Positions 24,933-40,012 of a DNA stretch of 40,012 nucleotides are shown here, piece by piece (the stretch's first letter is position 1; each line of letters opens with the position of its first letter). The stretch lies in IMG/VR virus record IMGVR_UViG_3300045391_003027, one strand, 5' to 3'. The stretch is from a virus. The notes under the pieces are model-generated. The model made no database searches. It was not told the origin of the DNA and worked only from the letters and a program-made list of their open reading frames with translations. Position numbers and translations under genes: made by a program.

Positions 24933-25145
24933 TCACGGCGCCGGCAGCTCCTTGGCGTGATCCTCGATGAGCTTGGCGAGCGTGCGCCCGCTGCGGTCCG
25001 GGTATTGCGCCACCAACTCAGCCGCGCGTAGCAAGCCCTGGCGATAACCCTCTTGCTGCGCCACGCGGAGCGGGGCCATTGCATCGAGGAAGATTGCGCG
25101 CCCCTCAGCTCGGCTCGGTTGCGGCGGCTTCTTCTGCTTGGGCAT
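24933..25145 (-). CDS. Hypothetical 70-aa protein
   Basis: ATG at 25145 is preceded by AGGAG. GC3 is high. Confidence 0.45.
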   Translation of the reverse strand: MPKQKKPPQPSRAEGRAIFLDAMAPLRVAQQEGYRQGLLRAAELVAQYPDRSGRTLAKLIEDHAKELPAP

Positions 25146-25308: not shown

Positions 25309-25397
25309 TCTGCCGTGACCCCCATCACCACGCCAACGACAGCGCCGATGGCGAAGCCGGCCATAAATGCGATCAGGCAGGCGTCAAATAGGTTCAC
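25305..25397 (-). CDS. Possible 30-aa single-pass membrane peptide
   Basis: GTG at 25397-25395 overlaps the GroES-like stop as GTGA. My translation is VNLFDACLIAFMAGFAIGAVVGVVMGVTAE. Its stop overlaps the next ATG as ATGA. It is too short for the ORF track. Confidence 0.3.
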   Translation of the reverse strand: MNLFDACLIAFMAGFAIGAVVGVVMGVTAE

Positions 25398-25945
25398 CGG
25401 CGCTGCTCCCCGTAGTCGAGCTCGAGCGCCTCGTACTCGGGACGCTGGTCCGGCAACTCGAACAGAATCTCGTCGGCGCGCACCATGCGGTATTCGCCAC
25501 CGGGACGCTCGTGCTTGGTGGGCACGGGGAAGCTCTCCCAGCTGCAACCGCGGGGATTCGTGCGGGGCTTGGCCACATCCAGCGACCAGTCCTGCCCCGC
25601 GCGCTCGTCGACTACCACGCACATGCCGGGCTCCACCTCCGTCGGCACGAGCGGGCCGCGACCGTCGCGCAACCGCCAACCGGGACCCGTGGCGAGCACG
25701 ATGGCCTCGCGCACGCCATTGGCCTTGCCTTGGCGGTTCGCCGGCAGCACGAGCAGGCTCCCGCTCATGCGTTCGGGCCGCGGCTTGAGATACAGCAGCA
25801 CATTGTCGTCGAGCGGGCGGATGCGGCTCGGGTGGCTATCGCCAGCAGCAGGCTGGTCGCCGGCCAGCATATCGAATAGCGGCGGAATGGTCGGAGCAGG
25901 TGGTGCCTCGCTCGGGCTCGGTAGCTCGATTGCTGGCTTGCTCAT
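25394..25945 (-). CDS. GroES/Cpn10-like co-chaperonin with a Pro-rich N-terminal extension and an internal insertion (183 aa)
   Basis: The sequence aligns by eye to GroES. IRPLDDNVLL fits IRPLxDRVLV. SGSLLVLP fits the mobile-loop AGGIVL. REAIVLATGPG fits GEVxAVGxG. EVEPGMCVVVDE fits DVKVGDxVxF. YRMVRADEILFEL fits the C-terminal strand. Confidence 0.6.
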   Translation of the reverse strand: MSKPAIELPSPSEAPPAPTIPPLFDMLAGDQPAAGDSHPSRIRPLDDNVLLYLKPRPERMSGSLLVLPANRQGKANGVREAIVLATGPGWRLRDGRGPLVPTEVEPGMCVVVDERAGQDWSLDVAKPRTNPRGCSWESFPVPTKHERPGGEYRMVRADEILFELPDQRPEYEALELDYGEQRR

Positions 25946-26000: not shown

Positions 26001-26322
26001 TCACTTTTCTCCTCTCGAGTCTTGGTCACTTCCTGGAAAGCCTCTGAGATCGCGCGGTGTCTGAATGCCGCTGATGCACCACTGCAAACGCGAACGATTG
26101 GCCTTCGCCAGCCCCCGCCGGCCGCATTCGCGATGCAACTTGGTCAAGCCCTGCGCCCGACAGAACGCCCGTAGCCGCGTTTCGCTCGTGCCCAGCTGAT
26201 AGACAGCCTTGCGCAGCGCGCGTTTCGCTCGTGCCCAGCTGATAGACAGCCTTGCGCAGCGTCGGCGCCTCGCGCAGCACGTCGGCGACGTGTGTGGGTT
26301 CGAGCACGACGTAGGCCTTCAT
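26001..26322 (-). pseudogene. Small gene frameshifted by a 43-bp tandem duplication
   Basis: ATG at 26322-26320 overlaps the upstream stop as ATGA. The reading frame MKAYVVLEPTHVADVLREAPTLRKAVYQLGTSETR is then shifted +1 by the second repeat copy. Deleting one copy gives a 92-aa ORF ending at 26001 (...RLRAFCRAQGLTKLHRECGRRGLAKANRSRLQWCISGIQTPRDL...) with better GC3. Confidence 0.5.
26177..26262. repeat. Tandem duplication, 2 x 43 bp (gcgtttcgctcgtgcccagctgatagacagccttgcgcagcg + c/t)
   Basis: Copies at 26177-26219 and 26220-26262 match at 42 of 43 positions. The unit length is not a multiple of 3. Confidence 0.9.
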
Positions 26323-29739: not shown

Positions 29740-29779
29740 AAAAAACCGCCTGATCCGAAGTCAGGCGGTTTTTCTTTTG
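29740..29779. terminator. Bidirectional intrinsic terminator
   Basis: Perfect 10-bp stem, AACCGCCTGA (29744-53) with TCAGGCGGTT (29761-70), and a 7-nt loop. An A-run lies upstream and tttcttttg downstream, so a U-tract follows on both strands. The integrase TGA lies inside the stem. Confidence 0.7.
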
Positions 29780-30933
29780 GAACGCTTTTTCTGGGGGTCC
29801 CCCAGATCCACCGTCGCCAGCGCCGCCCGAAAGGACGGCTTCACGTAGCGGGACGTGGTGCTCAGCAGCTTGTGCCCCACCCGGTACTGGATACCCACGA
29901 TGCTCTTGCCCTGCTCGAGCTCGTGCGTCGTAAAGGCCGACCGTAGGTGTGACCCCGCAAACCGCTTGGCCGCCTCGCCCTTCAGCACCGCCGTGGCCGC
30001 CGCCTTGATGTGCGGCCGGTAGTCGTGCCAACCGAATATCAGCCCAGCGTCCGGACACACGGCGTCGAGGGCCGCCCTGGCCTTGCGCGTTAGGGGCACG
30101 TCGCGCGCCCAGCGCGCCTTGTCGATGTCCGCCGTGATGCGCAGCACCGGCGAGCCCTTGGCGTAGTGCTCGGGCACGCTGAGCTTGTCGAGCGTTGCGG
30201 GCCGGAGCCCAGTCTCGTAGCCCACCACGAAGCGCGCCCGGATCGGGAACAGCTTGGCCTTGTATGTTCGCTTGCGCGCCAGGTCGCGCCGTGGCGGCCC
30301 CTTCCGCCCGCCCCACTCCGGCAGCTTGGCGATGATGCGCAGCGTCTCCTGGGGGGAGATTGCGTCGGCCGCGGTACGGCGCCGGACGGGGTGCGCCTTG
30401 CCCGTCACGTTCTTGGGCACGCCGGCAATCGGAAATGCCGCCGGCAGCGCGCCAATTTCCTCGAGGGCACAAAACGACACCAGATTGCGGAGCGCGGTGA
30501 GCTCGTGTCGCACGGTCGACGCCAGCACCTTGCCAAGGCGCCGCCGCCGATACTCCGCGCAGCCCGCCTCGGTCAGCTTCTCGACCGACCCAAAGAACGG
30601 CACGAAATGCGAGCGCGCGTAGTCCCGCCAAACGTCCCGCGTTGGCTCCGCGTGCGTGGTTGTCAGCCATTCTTGCCATGCGCTTACGAGATCCTCGAGT
30701 GCAGGTGCACCACCGACGCGAGGTGCACGTTTGGCGATTCGGAGCTCTCCAGCTCGAGCAGCGGCGACGAGGCGCGCGGCCTCTGCGTTAGCTTTGCCCT
30801 CGTCTCTTGTGCCCGTGGACCGCTCAGTAGTGCGACCATCAGCGGTGAAGCGGGCGCGCCAGTTTTCGTTGGGCGAGTTGCGGGTGAGCGTCCAGGCTTG
30901 GTTTTTCCGTCGCTTGAGAGTGATTCTGCCCAT
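29761..30933 (-). CDS. int: Tyrosine integrase (site-specific recombinase), 390 aa
   Basis: ETGLRPATL supplies the first catalytic Arg, HLRSAFTTH the H-x-x-R motif and GHKLLSTTSRYV the His and Tyr. The N-terminal arm-type domain is MGRITLKRRKNQAW...RFTADGRTTERSTG. I took the ATG at 30933; the ORF-track start is the TTG at 31035. Confidence 0.8.
   Translation of the reverse strand: MGRITLKRRKNQAWTLTRNSPNENWRARFTADGRTTERSTGTRDEGKANAEAARLVAAARAGELRIAKRAPRVGGAPALEDLVSAWQEWLTTTHAEPTRDVWRDYARSHFVPFFGSVEKLTEAGCAEYRRRRLGKVLASTVRHELTALRNLVSFCALEEIGALPAAFPIAGVPKNVTGKAHPVRRRTAADAISPQETLRIIAKLPEWGGRKGPPRRDLARKRTYKAKLFPIRARFVVGYETGLRPATLDKLSVPEHYAKGSPVLRITADIDKARWARDVPLTRKARAALDAVCPDAGLIFGWHDYRPHIKAAATAVLKGEAAKRFAGSHLRSAFTTHELEQGKSIVGIQYRVGHKLLSTTSRYVKPSFRAALATVDLGDPQKKRSKRKTA
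29791..29808. repeat. 18-bp repeat ctgggggtcccccagatc, copy 2 (inside the integrase 3' end)
   Basis: Identical to 29585-29602. On the minus strand it encodes ...DLGDPQ... of the integrase tail. Confidence 0.85.
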
Positions 30934-31070
30934 GCGTCGAGATCCGATTCGAGGAACAGCACGCGCCGACCAATCTTCTTTGGCGTGAGCGCAGGTCGCA
31001 CGTGCGCGTCGAATGCCGCGACCGAGCACCGGCAACGTTCGGCCGCTTCGCGTTTCGTCAAGAGCCTCAC
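30684..31070 (-). CDS. Excisionase/AlpA-like HTH protein; the ORF runs 250 nt into the integrase gene in another frame
   Basis: GTG at 31070 overlaps the upstream stop as GTGA. (V)RLLTKREAAERCRCSVAAFDAHVRPALTPKKIGRRVLFLESDLDAWAESL is a typical MerR-type or Xis HTH_17 pattern. No stop occurs until 30684. Confidence 0.5.
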   Translation of the reverse strand: MRLLTKREAAERCRCSVAAFDAHVRPALTPKKIGRRVLFLESDLDAWAESLSSDGKTKPGRSPATRPTKTGAPASPLMVALLSGPRAQETRAKLTQRPRASSPLLELESSESPNVHLASVVHLHSRIS

Positions 31071-31474
31071 GCCGCTGCCTCCTGATCTAGACGGATCAGT
31101 GCGTCGAGCGCACGCGCCACCGGCCCCTCATTGCGGAACCACTCGCCCTGCTCACGATACTCGCGAAAGCAGTCGTGCAAAAAGCGCTCGAGCTCTAGGC
31201 CGCCCGGCACGCTGCATAGCAGCTGCATTTTGCGTCCGGTTGCCAGCTCGAGCGTTCGTTGACGACCGGAAACGTTATCGGACCAGCCCACCTTCACGAG
31301 ATTGTCGAGCGCGATGAAGTAGACCACTCGGCCCGACGGGAATTGGGCATCGCGCGCCGGCACCGCGTTGCCCTCGCAGGCACCGCTGGCCACCGTGACG
31401 AGCTTCCCGCCACAACGCACGCGCCACCGCCACGAATAGCGATCGCGGCGCTCTATTGAGCCGGGCGTGTTCAC
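31067..31474 (-). CDS. T5orf172 (MUG113, GIY-YIG-superfamily) domain protein, 135 aa
   Basis: GRVVYFIALDNLVKVGWSDNVSGRQRTLELATGRKMQLLCSVPGGLELERFLHDCFREYREQGEWFR fits the T5orf172 pattern (KIG..., R...L, E..LH..F, EWF). The GTG start overlaps the upstream stop as GTGA. Confidence 0.55.
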   Translation of the reverse strand: MNTPGSIERRDRYSWRWRVRCGGKLVTVASGACEGNAVPARDAQFPSGRVVYFIALDNLVKVGWSDNVSGRQRTLELATGRKMQLLCSVPGGLELERFLHDCFREYREQGEWFRNEGPVARALDALIRLDQEAAA

Positions 31475-31743
31475 GATGCCGCCTTCTGGTCGGGCACGAA
31501 GCGGCAGCCCTGCCCGCACTTCGGGACCTTGCCATCACGCACCTGGCGCCGGACATGGCCGAGCGCGCGCATGATTTCGACGCCGCAGCGGCACCGGAAG
31601 AACCACTGCGACGTGTCGCCCTTGCACTGGCGCAGCGGCGTGAGCCAGCCGTATTCGGCCGCCACGGGCTTCGCGTTACGGGCTCGCGCTCCGAGTTGCG
31701 GCGTGCCGGATAGCGAAACAGGAAGATCGCGAACGCGCGTCAC
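31471..31743 (-). CDS. Zinc-finger protein (about 90 aa) of the 'GxLT...W.C.CG...GC' type
   Basis: YGWLTPLRQCKGDTSQWFFRCRCGVEIMRALGHVRRQVRDGKVPKCGQGC is the N-terminal module common in phage endonuclease-associated proteins. GTG at 31743 overlaps the upstream stop as GTGA. Confidence 0.45.
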   Translation of the reverse strand: MTRVRDLPVSLSGTPQLGARARNAKPVAAEYGWLTPLRQCKGDTSQWFFRCRCGVEIMRALGHVRRQVRDGKVPKCGQGCRFVPDQKAAS

Positions 31744-32117
31744 GGCGGGAACCCCATCCGCCAATTGGTCTCAGCAGCGATCTTCGGGTCGATCGAGATT
31801 CCGACGTCGGTGGCCTTGTAGCCCGGAAACATGGCCTCGAGCTCCCGTTGCTTGTGCTCACACTCGGTGACGATCTGCGCCATGAACTCGTCGAGGGTGA
31901 AAACGCCCTTGGCGATGAGCAGCGCCGTGAGCGCATTGACCTCGACGCGCAGCATGAGCACAGCGTCGGCGCGGTCCCGGTAGGCCTTCACACCCGGCGC
32001 GTCGGCAGCCTTCGTGCCGATCATCCAGCCCACTAAGACGCTCCGCCACTTGCCCAGACGTTGTGTCGCTCGCTCGTAGGCCTCACGGATCCCCGCGCTT
32101 GTTTGTTCGTCCTTCAC
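31740..32117 (-). CDS. Hypothetical 125-aa protein
   Basis: GTG at 32117 overlaps the upstream stop as GTGA (VKDEQTSAGIREAYERATQRLGKW...). GC3 is high. Confidence 0.45.
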   Translation of the reverse strand: MKDEQTSAGIREAYERATQRLGKWRSVLVGWMIGTKAADAPGVKAYRDRADAVLMLRVEVNALTALLIAKGVFTLDEFMAQIVTECEHKQRELEAMFPGYKATDVGISIDPKIAAETNWRMGFPP

Positions 32118-32347
32118 GCAGCATTCTTTCCGGCCGTGACGGCCTCGATGGCACAAAGCAGGTCGAGCCGGTCAGCGCGCTTGCGGTTGCAGCGCAGCAG
32201 CCGCCGCACGCCACGCGCGGTCGTGCCGACGAGCGCCCCGAGCTCGTCTTGGGTGAGCTGGCTCGCGGCACAGGCGCGCAGCAGCCGCGCACGACCGGCG
32301 CCTTTGGGCCTCGCTGGCGCGGGGAACAGCAGCAGTTTACCGGCCAT
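32114..32347 (-). CDS. HTH DNA-binding protein (77 aa)
   Basis: ATG at 32347. SQLTQDELGALVGTTARGVRRLL is a helix-turn-helix pattern. Confidence 0.45.
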   Translation of the reverse strand: MAGKLLLFPAPARPKGAGRARLLRACAASQLTQDELGALVGTTARGVRRLLRCNRKRADRLDLLCAIEAVTAGKNAA

Positions 32348-32504
32348 GCCTGCCCCCAATCCGGAACCGGTCGCCGTCGTGCTCCAGCGCCTGCTGGAAG
32401 CGTTCCGGTCGGCGGGTGAGCTGCGGCTCCTGGCTGCCGGCGAGCCCGTAGACGAGGGCAGCGCCGAGCGGCAGCAGGGCCAGGAAAACCGAGGCGGCGA
32501 TCAT
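32337..32504 (-). CDS. Small membrane protein (55 aa, N-terminal TM)
   Basis: ATG at 32504. Product: MIAASVFLALLPLGAALVYGLAGSQEPQL... GC3 is very high. Confidence 0.45.
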   Translation of the reverse strand: MIAASVFLALLPLGAALVYGLAGSQEPQLTRRPERFQQALEHDGDRFRIGGRHGR

Positions 32505-32557
32505 GTCAGCGCGCCCCCGATTGACGCCCCGGTGCGGGAGCGATGAGGTGGGTGACG

Positions 32558-32887
32558 ATGACTTTGGAGTCGGATGCGCGCGGCGCGATCTTTGGGTTGC
32601 TGGTGTGCGTAGCGGCCCTGCTGGCATGCGGCGGCGGAGCCGAATGGACGCGGGTAGGCGCACGGACCTACGCAATCGAGTGCGACGGGACGCGGGAGTG
32701 CCACCAGCGGGCCCACCGGCTCTGCCCCTACGGCTACAAGGTCAAGGAGCAGCCCAGCAGGGACGACCTCCTCGTGACATGCGCACCGCCTGTCTTTTGC
32801 AGCAACCAGGGCGACTGCGCAGCACAGGGGCTTCGTTGCGTGAAAAGCAAGCGCTACCCCGGCCGCGGCGTCTGCGCCGACCAGTAG
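32558..32887 (+). CDS. Cys-rich lipoprotein (109 aa), a lone plus-strand gene inside the minus-strand early region
   Basis: ATG at 32558 is preceded by GAGGTGG. MTLESDARGAIFGLLVCVAALLAC has a canonical L-L-A-C lipobox. The mature part has 9 further Cys. GC3 is high. It ends 2 nt from the convergent Cro-like gene. Confidence 0.6.
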   Translation: MTLESDARGAIFGLLVCVAALLACGGGAEWTRVGARTYAIECDGTRECHQRAHRLCPYGYKVKEQPSRDDLLVTCAPPVFCSNQGDCAAQGLRCVKSKRYPGRGVCADQ

Positions 32888-32889
32888 CG

Positions 32890-33120
32890 TCACGCGGCGT
32901 CTCCCGCCGCTTCTGGCTCCGGGGCTGCCTCGTCCCACTCCGGCAGGTCGATGCCGTAGTGCGTCTTGATCTTGATGCGCCACGGCGCGCTCGGCTTTCG
33001 GTCTCCCGACGCCCAGCGGCTCACCAGATTCTGTCGAGCTCCCAGCTCCGTCGCGACCTGCACCATGCGCCCGTGGGGCTTGCACAGTTCGGCGAAGCGC
33101 TTCGATCCCTTCGAAACCAT
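32890..33120 (-). CDS. Cro/YdaS-like HTH regulator (76 aa)
   Basis: ATG at 33120. MVQVATELGARQNLVSRWASGDRKPSAPWRIKI fits the YdaS/Cro-type pattern. No SD lies upstream, and the gene starts 12 nt from the operator palindrome. It is divergent from the repressor. Confidence 0.55.
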   Translation of the reverse strand: MVSKGSKRFAELCKPHGRMVQVATELGARQNLVSRWASGDRKPSAPWRIKIKTHYGIDLPEWDEAAPEPEAAGDAA

Positions 33121-33131
33121 CGGACGGAGCC

Positions 33132-33163
33132 TATCCCTCTTGGGATATATGTCAAGAGGGATA
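33132..33163. promoter_or_regulatory. 32-bp operator palindrome OR-like: TATCCCTCTTG-N10-CAAGAGGGATA, with a leftward TTGACA
   Basis: Perfect 11-bp inverted arms. On the minus strand it reads TTGACA (33155-33150), a 16-nt spacer, then TAGGCT, pointing into the Cro-like gene. It fills the cro/repressor gap. Confidence 0.6.
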
Positions 33164-33164
33164 C

Positions 33165-33560
33165 ATGTCCCGTGCCAGGATCGGCCTGCGAATGCCGAAA
33201 GTGACCGTGGCAACACCCTTGGAAGTGACCGGTATGCCCGTTCGGTTGCACGGGGCGATGCAGGCCGTTGCTCAGGCCTCGGGGCTCAAGAAGCTCACGC
33301 AGACGCAGCTGCAGGAGCTGTCGGGCGTCGCGCAAAGTTCGATTTCGCGCCTGCTCAACAAGAAGCGCGCCGGTGGTGGGCACGTCGCGCACGCTGTCCT
33401 AATCGCCCAGGCGCTTGGCGTCCGTCCGGGTTGGCTCATCGTGGGCGAGGAGCCGATGCGTCCCGCTGGCGCGGTCGTTCCGCGGCTCCCACAGGTCGTC
33501 GATGCAGACGCGCAGCGCCCGGCGAACGTTGGCGTGGCTGCCAAACACGGTAAGAAGTAG
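33165..33560 (+). CDS. CI-like XRE-family repressor
   Basis: LTQTQLQELSGVAQSSISRLLNKKR...AVLIAQALGVRPGWLIVGEEP is an HTH_3 pattern. It is divergent from the Cro-like gene. The start is uncertain: ATG at 33165 abuts the operator, with alternatives at 33192 and 33234. Confidence 0.6.
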   Translation: MSRARIGLRMPKVTVATPLEVTGMPVRLHGAMQAVAQASGLKKLTQTQLQELSGVAQSSISRLLNKKRAGGGHVAHAVLIAQALGVRPGWLIVGEEPMRPAGAVVPRLPQVVDADAQRPANVGVAAKHGKK

Positions 33561-33691
33561 GCGCCCGTCCCCCGAGGTCACGTCCACTGCCACCCCTCGT
33601 GAACAGGGCCTGATCCGATAGCGGTAGGCCATGGCTAGGTAGAACGCGCCAATCGGTCGCCGGCTTTGCGCGGTTGCGTACCCAAACGTTT

Positions 33692-33723
33692 TATCCCTCT
33701 TGACATATATCCCAAGAGGGATA
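33692..33723. promoter_or_regulatory. Second copy of the 32-bp operator palindrome, inverted, with a rightward TTGACA
   Basis: It is the exact reverse complement of 33132-33163. On the plus strand it reads TTGACA (33700-33705), a 16-nt spacer, then TAGTGT, facing the 33833 -> 39008 operon. Confidence 0.6.
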
Positions 33724-33832
33724 GTGTACCTGAGTCCTCGCTCGGAGGGGGCCTCGCAGCAGGCACCCCATCCCCCCTGGCCTGACCGGCTACGGGGCCC
33801 CGACTCCGGGCGAGCACAACCAGGAGCCCCCG

Positions 33833-34003
33833 TTGAAAGCCACCATTCACGTCGATTCTGACCAGCCCGTGTTGGTGCTGGTCCTGCCGCTTCCGCCCCG
33901 GAAGTGCCGCGAGCTGCCCGCCGACGGCCGCCGCGTCGTCGATACCACCGCCGAGCCCGCACCCGCCAACGTCGTCCACTTTCGGAAGGCCGTCGGTCAG
34001 TGA
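33833..34003 (+). CDS. Hypothetical 56-aa protein (first gene of the early-right operon)
   Basis: Not in the ORF track because it is under 60 aa. TTG start preceded by AGGAG with a 6-nt spacer. My translation is (M)KATIHVDSDQPVLVLVLPLPPRKCRELPADGRRVVDTTAEPAPANVVHFRKAVGQ. GC3 is very high. Its stop overlaps the next GTG as GTGA. Confidence 0.45.
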   Translation: MKATIHVDSDQPVLVLVLPLPPRKCRELPADGRRVVDTTAEPAPANVVHFRKAVGQ

Positions 34004-35122: not shown

Positions 35123-35392
35123 ATGTCTGCTGCGAAACAGATCGCTACCGAAACCGATGCGGCGACGCCCGCCGCGATCAGCCGCGAGGCGCGCGCCCAT
35201 CTGCGCGCCGTGTTCTACGACACCGTGCAAGCGCTCGCGGCGCTCGATTCTGGCGACCACTGCGGCGCCGACAACGCGCTCAAGGCCGCCATGCTGGCCG
35301 CCGCGGACGCGCGCGCTGCGCTGCAGCCGCTGCTCGCGCCGCTGTCACCCAAGGCCCAAGTCGACGCCTCACTCAAGGAGTGGCTCACATGA
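35123..35392 (+). CDS. Hypothetical 89-aa Ala-rich helical protein
   Basis: ATG at 35123 is preceded by AAGGAGGGA. Confidence 0.5.
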   Translation: MSAAKQIATETDAATPAAISREARAHLRAVFYDTVQALAALDSGDHCGADNALKAAMLAAADARAALQPLLAPLSPKAQVDASLKEWLT

Positions 35393-36846
35393 AAGACATT
35401 GTTCTCATCGATCACGGCAGCGTCTACTGGGCTGCCTGGCACTCCAGCGTGCACGAGGAGGTCAGCGCCGCGCATGACCGGTGCGTCGCCCACGTCCGCA
35501 AGATTGCCGGAAACACGAAGGCGGTCGCCATCTGCTGCGATTCGCCCAAAAGCAACCGCCGCGCGAAGTTCCCGGAATACAAGGCCAATCGCCCGGAGAA
35601 AGACCACGCGGCTATCGAGCAGCTGCAGCGCACGAAAGAGACCCTGCGCCGCGACGGCTTCCTGCTCTGGGAGGTCGAGGGCTACGAGGCCGACGACGTG
35701 ATCGCCAGCGCCGTCAAGCTCGCACTCGCCGACCCCGAAAACGGAATCACCGTGTGCACCGCCGACAAAGACCTGATGCAGCTCGTCGGTCCGCGCGTCA
35801 TCTGGGAGAGCACCCGCGTAGACCTGCAGTTGCAGGTGCTGGGCGTCCAAGAAAAGCTCGGCGTGCCGCCTGCCATGGTGCGCGACTGGCTCGCCCTCGT
35901 CGGCGACAAGTCCGACAACGTGCCGGGCGTGCCGGGGATCGGTCCCGTCAAGGCCGCGGCACTGCTGAACGAGTTCGGCAACATCGAGACGATTCTCGAG
36001 CGTGTTCAGAAAAACGTCACGCACAAGCTCTTTAGCCCGGCCATTGCCGCCGCTTTCTACGATGCGCAGAACCTGAAGAATCTGGCCATCGCGCGTGAGC
36101 TGGTGACCCTCGTCGACACGCTGCCGGTAAACTTTGACGAGATCTTCGAGGAGCGCGCATCTCAACCGCTGGTCGCGCCAACCGGGGAGTTTGACGATGA
36201 GCCGGCTCCCGCGTCGGCGCCGGTGCCCACCCCTGCTCCCCAACAGACGCCCGAGCCGCGCACCGAGCTTGTCGTCGCGCCACAGCAGCCGGCGCCTGTC
36301 ACGACTTTGGCGCCCGCGCAAAGCTCCGCTCCTTCTGCGCCGGCCCTCTCTGCATACGAGCAGCAGCTGCAGCCGCAGACGCTGAAAGCGGCCTCGATCT
36401 TGGCGGAGACGCTTTTCAATTCGCGGCTGTACCAAAAGCTCGGCAACAAAGAGGCGATCTTCGCGGTCATCCTGCGCGGGCGCGAGATGGGGCTGACCGC
36501 GCTCACCTCGCTCGACATGTTCCACGTCGTCGAGGGCAGGCCGACCATGACGGCGCACATGCTCATCTCCCGTGCGAAGCAACACCCCGACTGCAAGTAC
36601 TTCCGCTACATCGGCGGTGACGACACGTACGCGGAGTACGAGACATGGAACCGGCTCAATCCCGAGCCGACGCGGCTCAAGTACACCATCGAGCAAGCGA
36701 AGCGCGCAGGTGTCGTCAAGGCCGGTTCGAATTGGGAAAAGCGCCCCGCCGAGATGTTGCGCAAAACGTGCGGCGTGCAGCTCGCACGTATCGAATACCC
36801 CGAGGCCTTGGGTGGCCTCTACGCACAAGAGGAGCTCGCGGCCTGA
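35389..36846 (+). CDS. Fusion protein: N-terminal FEN / Pol I-type 5'-3' exonuclease, then a Pro/Ala/Gln linker, then a C-terminal RecT-like single-strand annealing domain (485 aa)
   Basis: ATG at 35389 overlaps the upstream stop as ATGA. The exonuclease motifs are LIDHGS, FPEYKANRPEK, GYEADDVIAS, TADKDLMQLV and GDKSDNVPGVPGIGPVKAA (H3TH). The C-terminus ...GLTALTSLDMFHVVEGRPTMTAHMLISRA...GSNWEKRPAEMLRKTCGVQLARIEYPEALGGLYAQEEL fits the RecT pattern W...P.EML.K....L.R...P. Confidence 0.65.
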   Translation: MKDIVLIDHGSVYWAAWHSSVHEEVSAAHDRCVAHVRKIAGNTKAVAICCDSPKSNRRAKFPEYKANRPEKDHAAIEQLQRTKETLRRDGFLLWEVEGYEADDVIASAVKLALADPENGITVCTADKDLMQLVGPRVIWESTRVDLQLQVLGVQEKLGVPPAMVRDWLALVGDKSDNVPGVPGIGPVKAAALLNEFGNIETILERVQKNVTHKLFSPAIAAAFYDAQNLKNLAIARELVTLVDTLPVNFDEIFEERASQPLVAPTGEFDDEPAPASAPVPTPAPQQTPEPRTELVVAPQQPAPVTTLAPAQSSAPSAPALSAYEQQLQPQTLKAASILAETLFNSRLYQKLGNKEAIFAVILRGREMGLTALTSLDMFHVVEGRPTMTAHMLISRAKQHPDCKYFRYIGGDDTYAEYETWNRLNPEPTRLKYTIEQAKRAGVVKAGSNWEKRPAEMLRKTCGVQLARIEYPEALGGLYAQEELAA

Positions 36847-38180
36847 TGGCAAAGAAGAAGCTTACGAAACTCACCGAGGCACAAGAGGCGCGCGTTGCGA
36901 CGTGGCGCGCGGAGTGGCTGACTCACGGCTGCTGTACCGAACGAGCGGACCGCCCGCGCGCGCAGGCCGCCATCACGGCCATGTACGAGGCAATCGGCGA
37001 GAAGGCGCCGGTGTACCTCTGGTTCGATTCGCCCATGTCGGCGTCGCTCGCCGCGGGGCTCCTGCTCTCGCTCAAGGCGAAGAAACCGCTGCGCGATCAG
37101 CTCGTCAGCCAGCTCGACAGCCAGCTCGACAGCCAGCTCGTCAGCCAGCTCGACAGCCAGCTCGACAGCCAGCTCGTCAGCCAGCTCGACAGCCAGCTCG
37201 ACAGCCAGCTCGGCAGCCAGCTCTACAGCCAGCTCGGCAGCCAGCTCGGCAGCCAGCTCGGCAGCCAGCTCTACAGCCAGCTCGACAGCCAGCTCGACAG
37301 CCAGCTCGGCAGCCAGCTCGGCAGCCAGCTCGGCAGCCAGCTCTACAGCCAGCTCGTCAGCCAGCTCGACAGCCAGCTCTACAGCCAGCTCTACAGCCAG
37401 CTCGGCAGCCAGCTCGTCAGCCAGCTCGACAGCCAGCTCTACAGCCAGCTCGGCAGCCAGCTCGGCAGCCAGCTCGACAGCCAGCTCTACAGCCAGCTGC
37501 GAGAAGATCTCAGAAGCCACGCGCGAAGCGCGGCGACCAACACGATGGCCACCAGTTGGCGCTACGGCTGGGTCGCGTTCTACAGCTTCCTGCAGGACGT
37601 TTTGGGCTTGGAGGCAGACGCCGAGGTGTTGCGGCGCCTCGGGCTTTGGAAGGAGCTCCTGCAGTCGTCCTTCTGGTTCATTCCGTACCAGGGAATGTGC
37701 TTCGTGAGCGATCGCCCGTCGGCCATCCATTGGGACGAGCGCGCGCGGCTGCATCACCCGTCCGAGGCCGCCGTGCAGTTCCGCGACGGCTACCGCTTGT
37801 TCATGTGGCACGGGACGCGAGTGCCCGAGCAATGGATTACGGCGCCCCAAAGCATCGACGTCACGGCCGCGTTGACTTGGGAAAATATCGAGGAGCGACG
37901 CGCGGCGGCCGAAATCATCGGTTGGCGCAAGGTGCGCGAGACTCTGATGGTCGAGGGCAAGGCGCGCATCATCGACGCCGACCCCGACCCCTACATCGGC
38001 ACGCTCTACGAAGTGGACTTGCCCGACTCGCCAGGCGAGAAGTTCTTGGACGTGCGCTGCGGCACAGGGCGCGACTTCACGCTGCCGGTGGACCCGAAGT
38101 CAAAGACGGCACTTGAGGCCAACGCCCGCACGTACCGGCTCAAGCCGAGCGAATACAAGAAACTCGAGGCGCGAACCTAG
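36846..38180 (+). CDS. Three-part protein (444 aa): an 84-aa N-terminal domain, a (Q-L-x-S)x33 tetrapeptide-repeat tract, and a roughly 225-aa C-terminal domain (possibly DUF6745-like)
   Basis: The ATG shares 1 nt with the upstream TGA. Only this frame gives sensible flanking domains. The C-terminal part ...VSDRPSAIHWDERARLHHPSEAAVQFRDGYRLFMWHGTRVP...WENIEERRAAAEIIGW...GTLYEV...ART matches a conserved family as I recall it. Confidence 0.6.
   Translation: MAKKKLTKLTEAQEARVATWRAEWLTHGCCTERADRPRAQAAITAMYEAIGEKAPVYLWFDSPMSASLAAGLLLSLKAKKPLRDQLVSQLDSQLDSQLVSQLDSQLDSQLVSQLDSQLDSQLGSQLYSQLGSQLGSQLGSQLYSQLDSQLDSQLGSQLGSQLGSQLYSQLVSQLDSQLYSQLYSQLGSQLVSQLDSQLYSQLGSQLGSQLDSQLYSQLREDLRSHARSAATNTMATSWRYGWVAFYSFLQDVLGLEADAEVLRRLGLWKELLQSSFWFIPYQGMCFVSDRPSAIHWDERARLHHPSEAAVQFRDGYRLFMWHGTRVPEQWITAPQSIDVTAALTWENIEERRAAAEIIGWRKVRETLMVEGKARIIDADPDPYIGTLYEVDLPDSPGEKFLDVRCGTGRDFTLPVDPKSKTALEANARTYRLKPSEYKKLEART
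37098..37499 (+). repeat. Tandem 12-bp repeat array, about 33 units of CAGCTC-NNC-AGC
   Basis: By my manual count there are 33 full units plus a terminal CAGCTG. Nine of the 12 nt are invariant in every unit. The variable codon is GAC, GGC, GTC or TAC (D x11, G x10, V x5, Y x7). Confidence 0.9.
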
Positions 38181-39621: not shown

Positions 39622-40012
39622 TCGGCATCCGTGGGCGGCGGGCTGGGCTCGGTGTCGTGCTGTAGCAGCTTGTCGATGGAGTAGAAGCAAGTCGGCTTGT
39701 TGAGCGGGATGCGTGTGCGGAGCACGACGGTGTCGGCGGCCTGGTTACCGTCGCAGCTCGTGAATGTGCCCGCGTCGGGGTCGACGCTGATGACGACGGC
39801 GTGGTGACGGTAGGGCCTGTCGTAGTAGGCAATGTCGCCGGGATCCGGCAGACGCGTCTTGGCCCAAGGCACATTGGGACCGAGCTTGTCGAGGCGCTGC
39901 TCCTCGCAGAAGCCGCCGCCGCTGCGCCAAAACACGGCCAGGGCGATGCCGGACTCATGCAGCCCCCAAAGGCAGAAGAGGCCGCACCACTCCTTTTCCT
40001 TGTCGGTGTCGG
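39618..40012 (-). CDS. Endolysin, C-terminal part (CHAP/NlpC-P60-like); the joined product is about 176 aa
   Basis: The ORF is open to the right edge and stops with TGA at 39620-39618. The tail ...GDIAYYDRPYRHHAVVISVDPDAGTFTSCDGNQ fits the His and Asn/Asp half of a Cys-His papain-like amidase. Confidence 0.6.
   Translation of the reverse strand, partial: DTDKEKEWCGLFCLWGLHESGIALAVFWRSGGGFCEEQRLDKLGPNVPWAKTRLPDPGDIAYYDRPYRHHAVVISVDPDAGTFTSCDGNQAADTVVLRTRIPLNKPTCFYSIDKLLQHDTEPSPPPTDAE
39950..40012. repeat. Terminal 63-nt direct repeat, copy 2 (identical to 1-63)
   Basis: Direct comparison of both window ends gives 63/63 identity. Confidence 0.95.

Follow-up and report, generated by a model that had tools for sequence, protein, structure and literature searches.

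What purpose is served by two mirror-image copies of a single 32-bp sequence placed on either side of a small phage repressor gene? The question is raised by IMG/VR virus record IMGVR_UViG_3300045391_003027, whose entire stretch of 40,012 nucleotides we refer to as the window. Our analysis suggests that the region 32890-33727 is probably the lysis/lysogeny immunity switch of a temperate phage, and that the two 32-mers are mirrored, bipartite operator-promoter modules within it. That operator-promoter modules surround the repressor gene had been proposed in a reading made from the letters of the DNA alone (hereafter the sequence-only reading). This core idea appears to stand, as judged from conservation across about ten lineages, but two other parts of the same proposal do not, namely a single operator per promoter and a repressor start at 33165, and the repressor need not be the sole binder.

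Since a tyrosine integrase is encoded in this genome, an immunity switch is to be expected. That the window represents a phage genome which is complete and circular, ~39.95 kb (about 39,949 bp) long and with 65% GC, is indicated by the recurrence of its first 63 bases at its end (1-63 are identical to 39950-40012). Temperate character is deduced from the integrase gene (29761-31035, minus strand), the large terminase and an exonuclease-RecT fusion, all encoded in the window. The integrase is also the sole recombinase found around the switch, from which it lies ~2.1 kb away.

The left 32-mer (33132-33163, TATCCCTCTTGGGATATATGTCAAGAGGGATA) and the right 32-mer (33692-33723, TATCCCTCTTGACATATATCCCAAGAGGGATA) are exact reverse complements when read directly, as the sequence-only reading had stated. 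With a repeat finder the match grows to 33 nt (33131-33163 and 33692-33724, 100% complementary, with 528 nt between the arms). No other inverted repeat of this size in the window is perfect; the remaining pairs listed are 70-85% complementary. Three further details given by the earlier reading are equally correct for the window: the 11-bp arms inside each copy are perfect, an outward-facing TTGACA is present in each (33155-33150, minus strand, on the left; 33700-33705, plus strand, on the right), and a TAnnnT hexamer follows 16 nt later (TAGGCT at 33133-33128 on the left and TAGTGT on the right). The repeats sit exactly in the two intergenic gaps beside a gene for an HTH_3 repressor and a gene for a Cro-like helix-turn-helix (HTH) protein, and these two genes diverge across 33132-33163. 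When the whole genome was searched for further half-sites, nothing was found beyond the four arms except what chance would supply; an 11-mer at 25045 with one mismatch lacks a partner, and the 5 matches found compare with 3.5 expected. A search of the window with the 16-bp unit described below returned four units and one chance match with 3 mismatches, and no further unit at ≤2 mismatches.

The strongest evidence that these elements are functional comes from relatives, which were recovered from metagenomes by using the repressor as query and then a profile of the Cro-like protein, and which amount to about ten lineages. Nine of them (window/L017, L001, L002, L015, L013/14, L016, L025/26, L020-22 and L023/24) share one layout, consisting of a cro-like gene, a 32-mer, a divergent repressor gene, a hairpin, an inverted 32-mer and early genes, and the starts of the 32-mers are 521-562 bp apart in the eight repressor-containing lineages measured. 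Because the repressors of the relatives are only 36-74% identical to that of the window and the genes outside the module differ (SbcCD-like genes in L001, for example), we regard the module as a mobile immunity cassette. In an alignment of three lineages, invariant columns account for 97% of the left 32-mer, 84% of the right 32-mer, 63% of both coding sequences and 12-44% of the flanking non-coding stretches. It is mainly on account of this strong phylogenetic footprint that we accept the operator/promoter reading. The exact identity of the two copies holds for the window but is not a general rule: the copies are also exact in L013 and L016, and they differ at 2-5 positions in 7/10 lineages, so that 27-32 of the 32 positions match among the relatives.

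Promoter-like spacing is preserved as well. All 20 copies from ten lineages have TTGACA or TTGTCA, then 16-17 nt, then nAnnnT, in which A2 and T6 are kept. As had been pointed out in the sequence-only reading, the cro-like ATG at 33120 has no Shine-Dalgarno sequence; it lies 7 nt after the −10 hexamer, and the corresponding distance is 6-8 nt in ten of ten lineages. There is thus no room for a leader, from which we soundly infer that the cro-like mRNA is leaderless. For the repressor the earlier reading had relied on the longest open reading frame (ORF), which does begin at 33165, one base after the repeat. The conserved start, however, is the ATG at 33192: the relatives have no counterpart of the ATG at 33165, and the stretch 33165-33191 lacks codon periodicity, with only 36% of its columns invariant. 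The hint of leaderless mRNAs drawn from both genes therefore survives in its cro-like part and fails in its repressor part, as that was based on 33165.

A revised version of the repressor argument is nevertheless available. The ATG at 33192 also lacks a Shine-Dalgarno sequence and lies, across lineages, 7-12 nt past a conserved −10-like hexamer, making a near-leaderless repressor mRNA from this start plausible. The motif GTGCnAGnnTC is the only conserved one in the 28-nt gap between the left operator and the repressor start. In nine lineages its hexamer conforms to [C/G]A[A/G][A/G][A/C]T; four lineages have TG in front of it, and in the lineages compared it is found 12-13 nt after the operator. 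This arrangement suggests a weak repressor promoter that is mainly −10-dependent and stands back-to-back with the cro promoter. Relative to this predicted promoter, the centre of the perfect 16-mer of the left module would fall at about −48 and that of its degenerate partner at about −32. Speculatively, repressor bound at such positions might activate its own promoter while scarce and shut it off once abundant. Elsewhere in the module, the first early-operon gene starts 6-9 nt after the −10 hexamer in L013, L015, L016, L020 and L023, and all three switch transcripts may be leaderless in these lineages. A precedent is provided by phage PY54, in which the cI and cro mRNAs are leaderless and begin at the AUG, as determined by rapid amplification of cDNA ends (PMC4488713).

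Both genes beside the left 32-mer encode proteins of the kind that could read such sites. The 131-aa repressor ORF scores 30.9 bits with Pfam HTH_3 (PF01381; cutoff 23, E=2.8e-7, residues 42-91) and also matches phrog_4, "transcriptional repressor" (E=8e-12). In this ORF Pfam finds only domains of the HTH type, and no S24/LexA-type autocleavage domain. The conserved protein is 112-127 aa long across lineages, and the variability of its gene by codon position is 34/22/79 in the three-lineage alignment. Sequence matches of the Cro-like protein are weak (HTH_31, E=0.033; phrog_638, E=0.003; Cro in PDB entry 3bd1, E=0.009). Its AlphaFold2 (AF2) model, with a predicted local distance difference test score (pLDDT) of 88, has a five-helix XRE/Cro-type fold, for which Foldseek reports template modelling (TM) scores of ~0.6 to HigA, DdrO, ImmR, SinR, C.AhdI and Xfaso Cro. 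The N-terminus MVSKGS, read from the ATG equivalent to 33120, is kept in 11 lineages. The recognition helix of the repressors occurs as QSSISRLLN, QGNISLLLN or QST[IV]SRLLT, and the QGNISL type pairs with operators that have G rather than T at position 7 of both outer half-sites. That of the Cro-like protein, QQSxVSRWASG, is nearly invariant, as is the operator core ATCCC/GGGAT. On these comparative grounds, the repressor and the Cro-like protein are both credible binders of the 16-mers, a situation that would parallel phage lambda.

The elements of the switch and of the homologous regions are collected in Table 1.

Table 1. Predicted elements of the switch region, genes of the rightward early operon and corresponding regions of the repressor-less lineage (window coordinates unless a relative is named).
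Feature	Position	Strand	Description
Cro-like gene	32890-33120	-	76 aa; first leftward gene, ATG at expected transcription start
Candidate −10, leftward promoter	33128-33133	-	TAGGCT, 16-nt spacer; cro-like ATG 7 nt on
Left operator, promoter-proximal 16-mer	33132-33147		TATCCC-TCTT-GGGATA, perfect 6-4-6 palindrome, between leftward −35 and −10
Left operator, promoter-distal 16-mer	33148-33163		TATGTCAAGAGGGATA, degenerate palindrome (4/6), holds leftward −35 TTGACA
Candidate repressor promoter element	33173-33181	+	TGc-CAGGAT, putative extended −10-like element; 12 nt past operator, 10 nt before ATG 33192
Repressor gene	33192-33560	+	122 aa from conserved start; XRE/HTH_3 domain, no peptidase domain
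Conserved hairpin	33607-33630	+	GGCCUG-AU-CCG-AUAG-CGG-UAGGCC, between repressor stop and right operator
Right operator, promoter-distal 16-mer	33692-33707		TATCCCTCTTGACATA, holds rightward −35 TTGACA
Right operator, promoter-proximal 16-mer	33708-33723		TATCCC-AAGA-GGGATA, perfect palindrome, between −35 and −10
Candidate −10, rightward promoter	33722-33727	+	TAGTGT, 16-nt spacer
First ORF of rightward early operon	33833-34003	+	TTG start, AGGAG before it; operon runs on to exonuclease-RecT fusion
Exonuclease-RecT fusion	35380-36846	+	one ORF: 5'-3' exonuclease (FEN-like N and C domains) and RecT-type annealing domain
Repressor-less switch region, L003	1729-1936		
Repressor-less switch region, L005	4253-4464		
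Repressor-less switch region, L018	6776-6987		

The question of what exactly is conserved within each 32-mer can be addressed by writing the 20 copies in promoter orientation. Positions 1-6, 8-11, 13-15, 18-19, 21-22, 27-28 and 30 are invariant. The promoter-distal 16-mer, which contains the −35 element, reads TATCCC[T/G]CTTG[A/T]CATA across lineages; its two copies per genome are identical in nine lineages, and those of L023 differ at the last base only (G or C). The promoter-proximal 16-mer reads [T/A/C]AT[C/T/G]CC-NNNN-GG[G/A]AT[A/T/G], with a central tetranucleotide that is AAGN in 15/20 copies and the exact complement, NCTT, in 5/20. These flips, seen in L001, L015, L018, L020 and L023, lower the complementarity of the 11-bp arms to 6-7/11, as compared with 9-11/11 in the other 15 copies, and the proximal 6-4-6 palindrome stays 5-6/6 complementary in every one of the 20. 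The flips thus break the 11-bp arms while the 6-4-6 palindrome is kept. From this comparison we take the conserved unit to be a 16-bp symmetric site with the core ATCCC-N4-GGGAT, present twice in each 32-mer, and a site that tolerates such flips is what a symmetric dimer would be expected to read. The half-site centres of this unit are separated by 9-10 bp, a usual distance for an HTH dimer. Where the sequence-only reading saw only one operator per promoter, there are instead two adjacent predicted 16-bp sites, one a perfect 6-4-6 palindrome and the other degenerate (4/6), lying 16 bp centre to centre and spanning −35 to −10.

In the earlier parse, each 32-mer is one operator in which a 10-bp spacer separates 11-bp arms whose centres are 21 bp apart, and one dimer or tetramer occupies it. 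The near-perfect arms of the window and of 15/20 copies agree with it, as do the change of both outer arms in the G-at-position-7 type, by which symmetry reaches at least 7 bp, and the 11-bp stem obtained when the element is folded as single-stranded DNA. However, a parse of this kind must accommodate five copies, drawn from more than one clade and from both flanks of the repressor gene, in which four consecutive arm bases are swapped for their exact complement with the inner palindrome untouched. Moreover, a half-site spacing of 21 bp is atypical for XRE dimers, and the inner hexamers GGGATA/TATCCC are conserved as well as the outer ones. We therefore regard it as unlikely. A different doubt concerns the identity of the protein, because the operators might serve mainly or only a Cro-like autorepressor of two divergent promoters, with the 122-aa XRE protein acting elsewhere or otherwise. 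A cro-like gene is indeed found beside the elements in every lineage, including one that has no repressor gene in or near the switch, and the Cro-like helix (Q-S-x-V-S-R-W) shares with the operator core the property of being nearly invariant. Yet the variable operator positions follow the helix type of the repressor and not that of the Cro-like protein, the repressor gene is bracketed by the sites in nine lineages, and no other repeated or palindromic candidate for a repressor site was found in the window. An exclusive role for the Cro-like protein is thus distinctly unlikely. What the repressor-less lineage does suggest, since it keeps both 32-mers, is that the Cro-like protein uses the sites, and this protein probably binds them too. 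For the same reason the 33165-33560 product, which had been named as the binder, remains a credible binder but may not be the sole one.

That lineage (L003/L005/L018/L019) also bears on a third explanation, in which the 32-mers would be inverted recombination sites similar to lox or FRT (11-10-11 with an asymmetric spacer) and the repressor segment a programmed invertible cassette. Its two 32-mers are only 176-180 bp apart, its flanks are homologous to those of the window, and its interior, hairpin included, matches the window interior only with the cro-like gene on the opposite side (alignment scores are 38-51 this way round; shuffles average 19 with a standard deviation of 3, and the opposite strand scores 19-25). 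The alignments therefore indicate that the segment between the repeats has been inverted at least once in evolution. Geometry like that of recombinase core sites, exact copies in the window, L013 and L016, and a phage that encodes both a tyrosine integrase and the exonuclease-RecT fusion would fit the same view. Nevertheless, all nine repressor-containing lineages, represented by many independent samples, share a single interior orientation, which points to a rare recombination event and not to a programmed switch; the single inverted example is also the one from which the repressor gene has been lost, again as in a rare evolutionary event. Spacers in the core sites of tyrosine recombinases are typically 6-8 bp, shorter than the 10 bp seen here. 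In addition, the copies differ in 7/10 lineages, no invertase-type domain was detected in the ORFs scanned around the region (a part of the ORFs of the genome), and the spacing of TTGACA, nAnnnT and ATG would be left unexplained. Programmed inversion at these sites consequently seems extremely improbable. A related idea, which is also very doubtful, is that the repressor gene and hairpin form a flippable cassette that is recurrently inverted by recombination between the 32-mers, perhaps through the exonuclease-RecT fusion or the integrase. If this were true, inversion would alter which lytic operon is shielded from repressor read-through and, with loss of the repressor, could yield Cro-only variants such as L003, L005 and L018. 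On this view the mirror arrangement would have been selected for switching or for the exchange of modules, and would be more than a duplicated promoter.

Several observations weigh against the interpretation as a switch made of operator-promoter modules, and they should be considered together. The −35 hexamers match the sigma-70 consensus at 6/6 positions but the −10 hexamers at only 3/6, and for this reason a scan with that consensus, which is assumed to apply in the host, does not report a promoter in this region at the thresholds used. With a pLDDT of 42, the AF2 model of the repressor is unusable for oligomeric state or looping, and the co-variation of recognition helix and operator represents essentially one evolutionary event. 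With two 16-bp sites side by side, the dimers would also sit on nearly opposite faces of the helix, and their cooperativity is not guaranteed. Finally, the repressor-less lineage has no repressor gene between its 32-mers or within 9 kb, and a repressor is therefore not strictly required beside the sites.

Between the repressor gene and the right module, the hairpin adds a conserved element of a different kind. It is kept in ten of ten lineages (window, L001, L002, L013, L015, L016, L018, L020, L023 and L025), with 88.9% of cells paired and compensatory changes at two pairs. Its covariation score of 0.18 compares with 0.064 in shuffles, is reached by 0/500 shuffles and exceeds all slid controls. 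The hairpin has no U-tract and no match in Rfam. Folding of the entire 131-nt spacer is not superior to that of shuffles (z = +1.5), and it is the local hairpin alone that is conserved. Its location between the repressor gene and a co-directional lytic promoter makes it a candidate terminator or insulator. An antisense ORF starting from 33632 (MAYRYRIRP...) was also considered for this region. Its variable sites are distributed 5/1/8 by codon position (a hand count over four lineages), which is not significant in a rough chi-square test that allows for the choice of frame, and the stretch 33607-33630 is better explained by the hairpin because of the compensatory changes. Some residual chance is left that the MAYRYRIRP... 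stretch, with its codon-like substitution pattern, has a coding role on the minus strand.

Taken as an immunity switch, the locus might operate as follows. Each 32-mer would be a promoter fused to a bipartite operator, composed of a degenerate 16-mer that bears the −35 element and a perfect palindrome that fills the spacer. The left module would drive the leaderless cro-like mRNA and the right module the early operon for recombination and replication. The XRE-type repressor would fill the 16-mers as dimers, two per module, and so keep RNA polymerase off both lytic promoters, and the Cro-like protein would very probably occupy the 16-mers as well. The repressor gene itself would be read from a weak, mainly −10-dependent promoter and be parted from the right module by the hairpin. 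The pairing of proteins with sites, its stoichiometry, the transcription starts, autoregulation and looping are deduced in this model from features that can be observed directly, namely sequence anatomy, conservation, and protein folds and families. Looping over 560 bp, which had been suggested from the distance between the operators, may be possible; the ~560-bp spacing itself follows from the length of the repressor gene.

Looping between flanking operators is established for lambda (PMC2685085), and at the level of sequence the resemblance to the lambda immunity region extends further. In both cases a repressor gene lies between two operator-promoter regions that govern two outward early units, a small Cro-like HTH gene diverges from it across a common operator region, an integrase is encoded on the leftward side, and the repressor mRNA is probably made without a leader, as is that of lambda cI from PRM. 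There are also clear differences. Each operator here has two 16-bp sites, whereas lambda has three 17-bp sites, and both operator regions are mirror copies of one sequence. Unlike the lambda protein, the repressor lacks an S24/LexA-like cleavage domain. Its gene is co-directional with the right early operon, with a hairpin between them, the cro-like gene is at the "left" operator, and the operators are 560 bp apart as opposed to about 2.3 kb in lambda.

Closer parallels to the bipartite operator can be found among other small regulators. The repressor gp33 of mycobacteriophage BPs binds as a tetramer to a 12-bp palindrome and a degenerate second palindrome located between −35 and −10 (PMC4557955). 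Like the system described here, it is a small XRE-like repressor, encoded divergently from cro, with a good palindrome and an adjacent degenerate copy between the promoter hexamers. However, the BPs palindrome (CGACATATGTCG, 12 bp) is unrelated in sequence, has a gap of 5-8 bp and is distributed over five loci, in contrast to two loci in the window, and immunity in BPs is integration-dependent and involves a C-terminal degradation tag. The C-boxes of restriction-modification C proteins consist of two dimer sites, of which the distal one activates and the proximal one represses (PMC6237814). Here too, two adjacent palindromic sites for a small XRE-type HTH protein lie over a weak promoter, and the Cro-like model counts C.AhdI among its structural matches. 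C-boxes differ in serving the timing of restriction-modification, in being present once per system, and in having neither a mirrored second copy nor a second regulator. Finally, the immB region of PY54/N15 (PMC4488713) has divergent cI and cro genes, both of which give leaderless mRNAs in PY54, the property predicted here from sequence. However, the tripartite operators there resemble those of lambda, PY54 Cro binds at one site only, and the repressor gene is not bracketed by mirror-image modules.

The significance of the locus lies in its compactness and in the degree to which its parts can be assigned. It would represent a switch of ~840 bp from uncultivated, high-GC temperate phages that lack a close cultured relative, with predicted cis elements assigned to individual bases, namely a pair of promoters, four operator units of 16 bp, one candidate maintenance promoter and a hairpin that may act as an insulator. 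As such it offers a natural example of bipartite operators for small XRE proteins, of an apparently leaderless or near-leaderless switch, and of operator symmetry revealed by tetranucleotide flips. The current picture of phage lysogeny control is unchanged by it, and a specialist would not be surprised.

Searches beyond the relatives described above added little. Among cultured phages, INPHARED contains no close relative, and the top match of the terminase is a Halorubrum phage at 29% identity. GTDB genomes, scanned for a host with the operator core and the Cro-like profile, gave no match. Scans of IMG/VR with the palindrome, the repressor and a shorter operator core yielded no relatives, only four low-GC chance hits (L009-L012), and the Cro-like profile found two distant HTH genes in unrelated contexts there (L007 and L008). 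Two matches of the metagenome scan, L004 and L006, were likewise attributed to chance. An archaeal TATA-box reading of the central ATATAT was also considered and was dropped because AGGAG precedes other genes, TTGACA and nAnnnT are conserved, and the proteins inspected by eye did not appear acidic in the manner of halophiles.

Several neighbouring genes are of separate interest. On the leftward side, a plus-strand ORF (32543-32887) and the cro-like gene are convergent, their stop codons being 2 nt apart. This ORF, which has good coding statistics (a GC content of 0.83 at third codon positions) and a lipoprotein-like signal (…LLACGG), may be a moron, and a similar convergent lipoprotein-like gene follows the cro-like gene of L003. 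Between the cro-like gene and the integrase lie another small HTH-like ORF, weakly similar to the repressor (32114-32359, minus strand; Xre-like-HTH, E=0.0098) and a gene for a T5orf172/MUG113-domain protein (31067-31519, minus strand). In the early operon on the right, the exonuclease-RecT fusion is also found in relatives L021 and L025. The same operon contains a 12-nt tandem repeat with >35 copies (37002-37600) inside the ORF 36645-38180 (plus strand), where it encodes ~45 tetrapeptides of the form SQL[D/G/Y/V] in the middle of a 511-aa protein; a homologue of this protein that contains the same repeat is present at the end of L005. Farther from the switch, a Cpn10 (GroES)-like domain protein is encoded at 25394-25945 (minus strand), and a perfect 43-nt tandem duplication occupies 26176-26261.

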